A stretch of 28,772 nt of DNA. Origin: Clostridia bacterium (lineage in GTDB: Bacteria > Bacillota > Clostridia > Oscillospirales > CAG-272). This document shows, piece by piece, positions 25,293-28,772 of this stretch. Numbering within the stretch: position 1 is the first letter of the stretch; the number at the start of each line of letters is the position of its first letter. The translations under genes were made by a program, and so were the position numbers. The stretch spans positions 1-28,772 of the forward strand of contig JAGCJD010000174.1 in assembly GCA_017648425.1 (NCBI GenBank), written 5' to 3'. Under the pieces are notes generated by a model. It did not search any database. It saw only the letters and a program-made list of their open reading frames with translations, and had not been told where the DNA came from.

Positions 25293-28200
25293 ATGGATAA
25301 GGAAACTGCAAAAAGACTTTCTCGGCGTTCAACAGAGCAAGCGCTTGCCAAAAGAGCTCAAAAGGCGGCAAGGCTGGAACAAGCAAAGCTTGAAAAGCAA
25401 ATAAATGAGTGGGAGCTGAACGAAGCCGAAAAAAAACGCTTGGAAGGCTACGACATAAATGCAGCAGAGGCAGAGCTTACAAGGATTACCAACAGCCCCG
25501 ATTATTGGGCGAACATAATAGGGGAGAATACGGCGTTTGATCAAGCTGAGGCGTTGCGCTCGGATATAGATAAGGCAAAGAAAATACAGGAAAGAGCAAA
25601 GGTTTATGACACGGCGTATAACGCCAAGAATGAGTTGCTCAACACCCGAATTGTTGACAACAAGACAAGGATAGAAGAAAATTCAATAATCGACAATATC
25701 ATAAAGAATACCGATAAAGCGTCCCTTGACAGCTATGTTATTCATAACGGAGCGCTTCCCGAAAGCATTGATGCGGATCTTGAAGATATCCGTCAGGAAA
25801 TAATGAACGAAATGTTTTCCAAAAAGGCTTATGAATATGGCAAGGAATTTCCTGTTATCGGAACGGTTGCCAGCGTTGCTTCAAACTTAATGGGCGGCGC
25901 TTTGGCGTATAGCACGATTTCAAAAGACGGCAGAAAATTAAAGGTGAAGAGAAATACTTTATCCGATATTGCAAGTAATCTTCGGGCGGGAGCTTCCTCT
26001 GACATGAGCGATACGGGAGAGTTCCTTTACAATACGGCAGTATCTATGACAGAGTCGGTGCTTGCCGCCCTTATGTCGGGTAGCGGAGGAATGACCTTGC
26101 TCGGAATGTCCGCAGGAACGCAGACGGCAAACGATGTTCTGTCAAGAGGGGGCACAAGCGAGCAAGCGTTAGTGGGCGGAATTGCCGCAGGAGTTTTTGA
26201 GGCTTTTTTTGAAAAGTTTTCTATTGGCGCGTTAAAGTCAATGCAGCTTGACGAAATTACAACCTCGTGGAAGGGCTTTATGAAAAATTTGGGCAAGCAA
26301 ACGCTTACAAATGCTACCGAGGAGGGCGCGACCGAGATAGCTAATACCGTGTTTGATACAATCGCCCTCGGAGATATATCAAATTGGTCGCTTATGATAA
26401 ACGAATATGTAAATCAGGGCATGACTTTGGAGCAAGCAAGAAAAAAGGCGGCGAGCGCGTTTGGTATGCAGACGATTGAGGCTATGGCGTCAGGCGCAAT
26501 CATGGGCTCTGCGTTCGGTCTTGGCGGAGCTGCTGTCGGAGGAATTAAAAGAGCTAAGAACGGCAAAGCCATTATAAACGAAAGCACAAAAGCAACGCTT
26601 GATGATTTGATAGCGGCAGGAGAGGAAATATTCGTTGGCGACGAATACAAGAAAGAGCGCGAGCTTTTAAATGCTATAAAGAAAAATAAGAGCAAGAACG
26701 ATCTTGCTCAAAGGAACAGAGTTGCAAAGCTTGACGAGATAATAACAAAAATCGCGCAGGAGAAAGCAAAAAAAGCTCCTTCATGGGAGGGGCAAAAAAA
26801 GAATATTGTAAACGATGCGCTTGATGATTTGTCGGGAACTCTGCGTACGGCGCGCTCAGAGGCTAAAAACGCAAGGATAGGCAAGGACATAACCTATACC
26901 GATATGCCGCGTATAGTTGATTTTAAGGGAAGCAGTGGCGATGCTGTAATTATAATGCGCTCAAACGGCACGGTGGCAAAGCTTTCCGATATGTCATTTG
27001 AGGACGGCTCGCTGCTTGAAGCATACTTTCTTGCTACAAAAACAGGCTCGGTGGAGAACGCGAACAGGTTTATCGAGCAATACAGATTGTTTAACAAAGG
27101 AATATCCATTGAGCCTTTTTGGTTAGCGTGGATGGGCGTGCAGAACTACGGACAGACAGTAAATTCCGAGAATGCTCTTGACAACGCCCTCAAACGCTAT
27201 AAAAAATATGGCGTTCCCGAAACGGCATTAATGGCGGCTTTTCTGTCGGGCAGAAATTTACGCAAGAGCGCATCGGAAAGCGCGAAAGCGGCGCAACGAA
27301 AATATGAAAAGGCGTGGAAAGAAGCAGGTGGCAAGCTGAGGGACGCAAGGTTTGACGATAGCGCCATAAATGTCAGCAGTCTTACCGAGGACCAAAAGGA
27401 ATATTTGTGCTTCTTAAAAGCATTTTCACGAGTGTTGGGCGCAAATATTGAGGTGTTTGCTTCCGAAAAAGGAAGCAGACGAGAAAACGGCTCTTACAGT
27501 CGAACTACGAACACCTTGCGTATTGATATTAATGCAGGTATTTCAAATGAAGCAAATTATGAGGCGACAAGGAGCTGTATTATAAATACGCTTTCTCATG
27601 AAACGGTGCACAATATGCGAGAGGTAGCGCCCGAGGAGTATGAGGCGCTGAGAGATTTTGTAGTAGAGCTTTTGCAGGAGGACGAGCATTACGATTTTGA
27701 CAAAGCAATAGAAACGGAAATTGAAAGAGCGGCGCAAAATAAAAAAGGCCTCACAAGAGAGGACGCCGTTGAGGAAATAGTGGCGCGTGCATGTGAGAAC
27801 TGTCTTGGCTCATCGGAAACGCTGAAAGACCTTTTGACAGCGCTTTACATTGAGGATAAAAGGGCGGATAACAGCTTTGTAAGAGCTGTGCGAGCGTTTT
27901 TGACAAGGCTTAAAAGGTTCTTTGAAAACATATCAAAGCAGAGGGCAAAGACGCAAGAGGCAGATATAATCGCTGGAAAGGGAAAAAATATAATCTCTGA
28001 AATACAAAAGCGCTTTGATACGGCTCTCCTTGCTATGCGTAAGGGTAATACCGAGAGAAACGGAATAACAAATAAAGATGCCGCGCCGAGTGTAGGGGCT
28101 GATGCCGACAAGCAGAATAGTGATGTCAAATATCAAATGCGCGAAGAAAATTCAAAGGATACTCTTTACATTTACAAGGAAAAGGAGTATAATGATTTTG

Positions 28201-28772
28201 GTTGGGCGGAAGCCAATGGCTTTTTGAGTGCGGGGGAGAACGCTGACTACCTGGCAAAATTTGCAATGCTGAAAGCTCGGAAGGTGAGCTTCCCAAAGAC
28301 CAAACGCAGCGAGTATATGATAGCGGTCAGCGACATTTACGATTACGAATCGGAGGGCGTTGAAAATGTTATCGTTTATGCCAAGGGGACTATCGAGCAC
28401 CCAATTGTTACAAAGGTCATTAGGATAGAGATATTTGAGGAAACAGAAAAACTTGACAAGAAAAGGAGAGAGTTTTATGATATTGGACGGAGAGGCTTAC
28501 AGCCGAAGATTGGAGAGCTTTGCAGATTCTACTATGGAGCTGACGGAAGATCTTATGGCGTATACAAAAGAGATAGCCTTCAAAATGCTGGATCTGACGG
28601 CGGACGACAGTCTGACGGAGGAGCAGTTGGTGGAAAAGCTGCTCGAGCTGAAGGAATTGGCAGATCAGGCGGAGATATAATATATTATCACGATGTTGAT
28701 GATGTAAAAATAAATTCCGAAAGTTCCTTTGACATTACCGCAAATGAGGTTGAGACGATACGGAGCATAGGC
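25293..28772 (+). CDS. Giant polyvalent virion protein (partial, at least 1160 aa) with MPTase-like zinc metallopeptidase domain
   Basis: My translation finds no stop from ATG 25293 to the window end (absent from the track for that reason); Gly/Ala-rich hydrophobic segment, then RENGSY...LRIDINA...LSHETVH (27597-27611)...EEIVARACE, a KYQMR linker and a further globular domain. Confidence 0.85.
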   Translation, partial: MDKETAKRLSRRSTEQALAKRAQKAARLEQAKLEKQINEWELNEAEKKRLEGYDINAAEAELTRITNSPDYWANIIGENTAFDQAEALRSDIDKAKKIQERAKVYDTAYNAKNELLNTRIVDNKTRIEENSIIDNIIKNTDKASLDSYVIHNGALPESIDADLEDIRQEIMNEMFSKKAYEYGKEFPVIGTVASVASNLMGGALAYSTISKDGRKLKVKRNTLSDIASNLRAGASSDMSDTGEFLYNTAVSMTESVLAALMSGSGGMTLLGMSAGTQTANDVLSRGGTSEQALVGGIAAGVFEAFFEKFSIGALKSMQLDEITTSWKGFMKNLGKQTLTNATEEGATEIANTVFDTIALGDISNWSLMINEYVNQGMTLEQARKKAASAFGMQTIEAMASGAIMGSAFGLGGAAVGGIKRAKNGKAIINESTKATLDDLIAAGEEIFVGDEYKKERELLNAIKKNKSKNDLAQRNRVAKLDEIITKIAQEKAKKAPSWEGQKKNIVNDALDDLSGTLRTARSEAKNARIGKDITYTDMPRIVDFKGSSGDAVIIMRSNGTVAKLSDMSFEDGSLLEAYFLATKTGSVENANRFIEQYRLFNKGISIEPFWLAWMGVQNYGQTVNSENALDNALKRYKKYGVPETALMAAFLSGRNLRKSASESAKAAQRKYEKAWKEAGGKLRDARFDDSAINVSSLTEDQKEYLCFLKAFSRVLGANIEVFASEKGSRRENGSYSRTTNTLRIDINAGISNEANYEATRSCIINTLSHETVHNMREVAPEEYEALRDFVVELLQEDEHYDFDKAIETEIERAAQNKKGLTREDAVEEIVARACENCLGSSETLKDLLTALYIEDKRADNSFVRAVRAFLTRLKRFFENISKQRAKTQEADIIAGKGKNIISEIQKRFDTALLAMRKGNTERNGITNKDAAPSVGADADKQNSDVKYQMREENSKDTLYIYKEKEYNDFGWAEANGFLSAGENADYLAKFAMLKARKVSFPKTKRSEYMIAVSDIYDYESEGVENVIVYAKGTIEHPIVTKVIRIEIFEETEKLDKKRREFYDIGRRGLQPKIGELCRFYYGADGRSYGVYKRDSLQNAGSDGGRQSDGGAVGGKAARAEGIGRSGGDIIYYHDVDDVKINSESSFDITANEVETIRSIG
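28477..28680 (+). CDS. Nested out-of-frame 67-aa acidic helical protein (candidate immunity protein)
   Basis: AGGAGA RBS 7 nt before ATG 28477; +1 frame inside the giant ORF; MILDGEAYSRRLESFADSTMELTEDLMAYTKEIAFKMLDL...LVEKLLELKELADQAEI. Confidence 0.6.
   Translation: MILDGEAYSRRLESFADSTMELTEDLMAYTKEIAFKMLDLTADDSLTEEQLVEKLLELKELADQAEI

Follow-up and report, generated by a model that had tools for sequence, protein, structure and literature searches.

The window analysed here is one whole contig of 28,772 nucleotides (nt; JAGCJD010000174.1, referred to below as C198) from a gut metagenome-assembled genome of a Clostridia bacterium that is 76% complete. It ends inside the giant open reading frame (ORF) of a prophage polyvalent protein, and within this host ORF a second, much smaller ORF lies in the +1 frame at positions 28477–28680. 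We conclude, with a probability of about 0.85, that the small ORF is a real protein-coding gene, overprinted on the same strand on one module of this virion-delivered, multi-domain protein and read by internal initiation. This conclusion draws on the conservation of its Shine-Dalgarno (SD) sequence, start codon, open frame and length among homologous modules, on the purifying selection that appears to act on the nested frame, and on the confident predicted fold of its product. We infer that the ORF is translated. The features on which the argument turns are as follows.

28167–28703, + strand: host module of about 179 amino acids, a member of an unnamed domain family of polyvalent proteins (homology search, AlphaFold2)
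28167–28592, + strand: predicted folded part of the host module (AlphaFold2)
28464–28469, + strand: AGGAGA, putative SD sequence of the nested gene, coinciding with the host codons AGG AGA (Arg-Arg)
28477–28680, + strand: putative nested gene in the +1 frame, 204 nt and 67 codons, from ATG at 28477 to TAA at 28678–28680, predicted to encode a four-helix protein
28477–28592, + strand: segment in which both frames encode predicted folded protein (host-module residues 104–142, nested residues 1–39)
28593–28703, + strand: predicted disordered linker of the host module (AlphaFold2)

The nested ORF is complete, with its own start, stop and ribosome-binding site in another frame of the larger gene. 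The SD sequence and the ATG are separated by a spacer of 7 nt (GAGTTTT). The product of 67 amino acids, MILDGEAYSRRLESFADS...ADQAEI, has a net charge of −12 and an isoelectric point (pI) of 4.1. The SD sequence, spacer, start codon and acidic product had been noted in a first-pass annotation made from the DNA sequence alone, which also quoted the host-frame translation over the same bases, RDSLQNAGSDGGRQSDGGAVGGKAARAEGIGRSGG; all of them are present and the quoted string is correct. Two further statements of that annotation do not hold. It placed the nested ORF directly after a host domain; instead, the ORF covers host-module residues 104–171, overlapping the last ~39 residues of the predicted fold and then ~29 disordered residues. 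It also took the Gly/Arg/Ser-rich host linker as a local degradation of the host frame. A tail rich in Gly, Arg, Ser and Asn is found in distant members of the whole module family as well, and is an ancestral property of the family.

We propose that ribosomes would start on the nested gene independently, at the internal SD sequence and ATG, on the mRNA of the giant gene itself. The product would be a soluble four-helix protein of about 60–70 amino acids. Module and passenger gene would be inherited, duplicated and shuffled as a single cassette.

Conservation, selection and predicted folds

A search of 1.84 billion representative proteins with the host module, about 180 residues long, returned 375 relatives (E ≤ 0.001), and many of these belong to proteins of 2000–4700 amino acids. 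From this family of ~375 members, 28 module copies were compared at the DNA level. They comprise the window copy and a second copy in the same gene, nine loci in GTDB genomes that were located by host-frame motifs of the N-terminal part, upstream of the nested ORF, four distant loci from a genome search, seven loci fetched by host protein, and four loci that came to light because the nested ORF itself had been called as a gene, with two more divergent copies at one of the four. Of the 28 copies, 23 were found without reference to the nested frame.

In all 28 copies the homologous site is occupied by a start codon (27 ATG and one TTG), followed by an open +1 frame of 59–93 codons, with the host frame open as well; the +2 frame is full of stops. 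In the 23 independently found copies, the overlap contains no +1 stop, compared with 29.1 expected from the host protein and codon usage; such combined figures overstate independence and are upper bounds on significance, as the copies are related by descent. In the part of the same modules outside the overlap, 125 +1 stops were seen and 111 expected. An SD match of at least 5 nt is positioned 4–10 nt upstream of 22 of the 28 nested starts, compared with 4.9% of other ATG triplets in the same ORFs; the remaining six starts have weaker purine-rich matches. The SD nucleotides are kept while the host residues they encode change (RR, RS, RG, RE, RK, KE and QE). Similarly, the host Tyr codon that contributes the first two letters of the nested ATG is TAT in 27 of 27 cases, against a background of 62%, and the host residue that follows it has a G-initial codon in every copy (Asp, Glu, Ala, Gly or Val). 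The first-pass annotation had suggested aligning homologues to ask if the nested frame, its ribosome-binding site and its stop are retained; ribosome-binding site, start and stop are. Taken together, these comparisons indicate that the conservation of the nested ORF lies far beyond chance.

One copy differs from the others at the start site. At L031:1752–1973, the sole copy with Val in place of the overlapped Tyr, the nested ORF has a TTG start (or an ATG two codons downstream) behind TAAGGGAG. Its product is longer and basic (74 amino acids, pI 9.3), and a relative of 62 amino acids (P0164) starts at another ATG.

The pattern of nucleotide differences indicates which frame is constrained. In the upstream part of the module, the mean pairwise difference at host codon positions 1, 2 and 3 is 0.48, 0.41 and 0.63, the usual coding pattern. 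In the overlap, aligned by host protein, the corresponding values are 0.52, 0.44 and 0.38; counted in the nested frame they are 0.45, 0.35 and 0.55. Since the host third position is the least variable there, the periodicity of the overlap is that of the nested frame. The median apparent ratio of nonsynonymous to synonymous substitution (dN/dS) in the overlap, estimated by NG86, a method not designed for overlapping genes and biased in them, comes to 0.41 in the nested and 1.21 in the host frame; the nested value is the lower of the two in 158 of 168 estimable pairs. Most pairs of copies are saturated at synonymous sites outside the overlap; host-frame ‘synonymous’ divergence is 0.62 in the overlap and saturated upstream. 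Mean amino-acid identity in the overlap is 0.41 for the nested protein and 0.30 for the host. Periodicity, dN/dS and identity alike therefore indicate that purifying selection in the overlap acts mainly on the nested frame, in support of the first-pass annotation, which had read the host-frame pattern as a sign of selection on that frame.

The host frame is not free of constraint. Both frames are conserved in the first 24 alignment columns of the overlap, with amino-acid identities of 0.52 (nested) and 0.44 (host). Each frame is more conserved than in a codon shuffle that preserves only the other frame, with both figures inflated by shared ancestry. We suggest that the first ~24 codons of the overlap are under dual constraint. 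The wider alignment of 37 sequences was too diverse for pattern scans.

In the AlphaFold2 model of the host module, the predicted local distance difference test score (pLDDT) is 75–96 for residues 1–142 and below 50 for residues 143–179, and the folded part has the order alpha-alpha-beta-beta-beta-alpha-beta-alpha. The nested protein, modelled with an alignment of 21 sequences, is predicted with a mean pLDDT of 94.7 and a predicted template modelling score of 0.81. Four helices are predicted, at residues 5–14, 17–27, 31–41 and 48–66. TnpV (Pfam PF14198) was also considered as a family, and none of the 21 nested proteins matches it.

Several observations weigh against the existence of a gene. 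In the window sequence alone, the open nested frame is within chance. The +1 frame of the giant ORF contains 151 stops in 2671 codons, from which about one stop-free run of at least 83 codons is expected; the two longest such runs, of 83 and 84 codons, are the nested ORF and its paralogue. Conditioned on the host amino-acid sequence and codon usage, the probability of no +1 stop in the window copy is 0.10, which is not small because the hydrophilic host segment is poor in NTN codons. The shared descent of the copies and the bias of the dN/dS method, both described above, reduce the force of the comparative figures. AlphaFold2 is readily confident on idealised helical peptides, and the best structural matches of the nested protein are designed helical bundles. 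No family was found for it in Pfam, PHROGs or the ESM Atlas, and a fold search with Foldseek (PDB, AFDB and Atlas) and exhaustive VIA-align yielded generic helical bundles only. Finally, no free-standing homologue was found among 5.8 billion proteins, and a search for RNA runs that contain the locus returned none.

Alternative readings and a possible role

What might the nested protein do? Our tentative guess, to which we give less than even odds, is that in the producing cell it serves as a cis-encoded partner that binds its own module or the giant protein. As such a partner it may act as a neutraliser, or as a holding or packaging chaperone, and it would be left behind on packaging and injection of the giant protein. 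A more elaborate version, which we regard as rather unlikely, is that module and nested gene form a self-contained cassette in which an effector-like domain and its cognate neutraliser or chaperone are written in the same DNA, allowing polyvalent genes to duplicate and shuffle modules without separating the partners.

The first-pass annotation had gone further and proposed built-in immunity, in which the host module would be a toxin-like effector neutralised by the nested protein in the producing cell. This is a special case of the binding-partner guess. As a hypothesis it is neither refuted nor favoured by the evidence: the hints in its favour are weak, some findings speak against it, and we consider it unlikely. 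As would fit a cognate pair, each module copy has a nested gene to itself, and this is true even of three divergent copies that share a single giant gene. Co-divergence of module and nested gene is not, however, evidence of specificity, because physical overlap forces it, and this counts against the idea. When the fold of the host module was compared exhaustively with known structures, proteins of the RelE/ParE/HigB/YoeB or RNase T1/barnase type made up 21 of the 50 best rows. These toxin-type matches have Z scores of 3.0–3.8 only, all matches being at Z ≤ 4.0, below the stated noise level of the tool; Foldseek returned no more than another polyvalent protein. No Pfam, PDB-sequence or PHROG family is matched by the host module, which also has no invariant catalytic-type residue.

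The nested copy of the window is very acidic, as the first-pass annotation had stressed, and this part of its description stands. Across the family the nested proteins have a median pI of 5.1 (range 4.1–9.5), only the window copy is strongly acidic and some have a pI above 9. With a median pI of 5.4 for the host fold, the expected combination of an acidic neutraliser and a basic toxin is not seen.

We also compared the host module with the phage nuclease-like domains PBECR5 and MuF_C of polyvalent proteins, of which it could have been a divergent member. Profile comparison by hhalign was negative, which also speaks against an immunity system, and MuF_C domains contain no +1 ORF.

It is very improbable that there is no gene at all. 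The +1 frame would then be open as a consequence of a stop-poor hydrophilic linker, and the SD sequence and ATG would be by-products of the conserved host residues Arg-Arg-x-Ile-Tyr-Asp. For any single sequence these events are not extreme: given the host protein, the probability of no +1 stop ranges from 0.04 to 0.58, Arg is commonly encoded by AGR in these genomes, and Tyr followed by Asp, Glu or Ala yields an ATG with a probability of 0.36–0.80. Over divergent sequences, however, the joint probabilities are very small. Nor would this explanation predict that the SD sequence is kept as nucleotides while host residues change, that host third positions are least variable in the overlap, that the nested frame is more conserved than the host frame, or that the predicted nested fold is confident.

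A programmed +1 frameshift is hardly credible: the prfB-like slip at TTT-T (28473–28476), with the SD-like AGGAGA 3 nt upstream, would produce a truncated protein of ~1060 amino acids with a helical tail of 67, and the window sequence AGGAGA-GAG-TTT-T does resemble the prfB shift site, but the bases between SD and ATG vary among copies (ATTT, ATAT, ATCT, TTGT, GTAT) with no conserved slippery site, the 0-frame codon is an ordinary Tyr codon, and in most homologues a +1 stop (the TAA of TAAGGAGG) lies only 5 codons upstream of the ATG. The ATG is kept in 27 of 28 copies and the SD spacing is ideal where the match is at least 5 nt (22 of 28); initiation needs both and a frameshift neither. Independent initiation is the simpler explanation, and we retain it for the overprinted gene.

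Relation to known overlapping genes

By analogy, the closest known cases of such a nested gene appear to be Rz1 in Rz and comS in srfAB. Rz and Rz1 are the spanin genes of phage lambda, with Rz1, a lipoprotein that binds Rz, encoded inside Rz. As here, the small gene is complete, has a start of its own and is fully contained within a larger phage gene, in the +1 frame of the same strand; both products come from one mRNA, and the two genes are inherited together. In contrast to Rz, the host here is one module of a multi-domain gene of 2671 codons, the nested product is predicted to be a cytoplasmic four-helix protein, and the pair recurs as a shuffled and duplicated module. The gene comS of Bacillus subtilis, 46 codons long and confined to Bacillus, lies inside srfAB and encodes a regulatory peptide that releases ComK from MecA/ClpCP. 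It shares with our case the small out-of-frame ORF in a giant multi-module gene and the use of internal signals on the transcript of that gene, whereas the gene described here is retained among elements of uncultured gut Clostridia that have diverged widely, and its predicted product is a folded domain.

Type II toxin-antitoxin systems and the immunity pairs of polymorphic toxins (HigBA, ParDE, barnase-barstar) offer a looser comparison. Here too a small helical protein is found at the end of a compact alpha/beta module, and the weak, sub-threshold fold neighbours of the host module are RelE/ParE/RNase-type toxins. Unlike in those systems, there is neither sequence nor significant structural membership and no family-wide complementarity of charge, and the overlap extends over ~200 nt rather than a few bases.

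The founding paper on polyvalent proteins (PMC5512222) contains neither the word overlapping nor the word frameshift, and mentions no nested or immunity genes for polyvalent proteins. A full-text search combining ‘polyvalent protein’ with ‘overlapping gene’ returned one paper only, whose title and abstract concern an unrelated subject. What is new here is the nested gene as an integral, co-shuffled part of a protein module.

Few long same-strand overlapping genes in bacteria and their phages have good comparative support, and such genes are discarded by annotation pipelines. In this case ~200 nt would encode two proteins, and over ~115 nt both products are predicted to be folded. The dual-coding arrangement has survived divergence to ~35% identity of the host protein as well as repeated duplication, making it a clean natural system for dual-coding constraint. 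It would also add an unannotated protein family to the genomes of gut phages and mobile elements, one that gene callers and protein databases hold only by accident, from truncated contigs. A testable idea that follows is that, in polyvalent proteins that are injected, a module may come with a partner protein of its own.

The module as a cassette and its genomic setting

The giant gene contains a duplicate of module and nested ORF 1.6 kb further downstream, in the part that lies on contig C193 of this assembly (C193:1017–1727, with the second nested ORF at C193:1486–1692). The two module copies share 83% nucleotide identity, and the second has an insertion of ~160 nt in its N-terminal half. The repeat has probably caused the assembly break at the window end. 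The rows for the gene and for the repeat are given here.

25293–28772, + strand: 5′ part (1160 codons) of the host gene, a prophage polyvalent-protein ORF, open to the window end
28484–28542, + strand: run of 59 nt identical to the second module copy on C193 (alignment of the two copies)

The proposal of the first-pass annotation that module and nested gene move as one cassette is supported by this tandem duplication, by three divergent copies within one relative and by a relic in which both frames are open. Polyvalent homologues that contain the module also carry ART-PolyVal, MuF_C, PBECR5, LPD3 or MutS_I domains. What lies next to the module varies: ART-PolyVal is found before or after it, PBECR5 once after it, and LPD3 after it in the giant ORF studied here. 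As the neighbouring domain is never constant, the nested gene belongs to the module and not to a neighbour.

It was further predicted that standard annotation would miss the nested gene. This is true whenever the giant ORF is intact; wherever it is cut, the gene caller picks the nested ORF. Among the 5.8 billion proteins searched, nested homologues appear only as gene calls on truncated contigs or in broken giant genes. The module is rare in representative genomes, occurring in 2 of 61 of the same genus and 3 of 399 of the same class. Searches with exact peptide words found no close relatives in viral, genome or metagenome contigs, and searches of phage and plasmid records found nothing.

The giant ORF starts at 25293 and encodes 2671 amino acids in all, its frame remaining open across the junction from C198 to C193. 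The two contigs were joined on the basis of a 131-nt identical overlap and frame continuity. Upstream of the giant ORF lie genes for a serine recombinase, an ImmA/HTH repressor pair, a large terminase, a P22-like portal protein and a capsid protein. Downstream of the module the ORF contains an LPD3 domain (32.9 bits against a cut-off of 27). Because of the virion genes upstream and the LPD3 domain downstream, the giant ORF is a prophage polyvalent protein as defined by Iyer et al. (2017; PMC5512222): such proteins are encoded by giant multi-domain ORFs of phages or conjugative elements, with LPD and effector domains and in a virion or transfer gene context.

The N-terminal ~950 residues of the giant protein are unclassified, because no Pfam match was obtained there, and none even at E = 0.1 when the 1160 residues encoded in the window were searched. 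This region includes a zincin-like HETVH motif, visible at window positions 27540–27560, which is likewise unmatched.

Some further observations concern individual loci. Metagenome contigs on the region cross-map between the two paralogous module copies and are uninformative. In a relative of 4727 amino acids (P0037 residues 1492–1924, L036), a PBECR5 nuclease domain (Pfam E = 1.6e-53) begins exactly at the end of the nested ORF; in other relatives ART-PolyVal lies directly before the module. At L034:3967–8289, a polyvalent gene is split into three ORFs of 633, 281 and 514 amino acids and annotated as a string of small genes. It holds three divergent module copies, each with its own type of nested ORF (93, 78 and 68 codons). 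In another gut genome, a module relic of 156 codons that corresponds to the C-terminal half is located between a response-regulator-like gene and mnmA (L012:467–937; also L011 and L013–L015). Both frames of this relic are open, and the gene caller chose the nested ORF of 68 amino acids over the longer ORF in the host frame.

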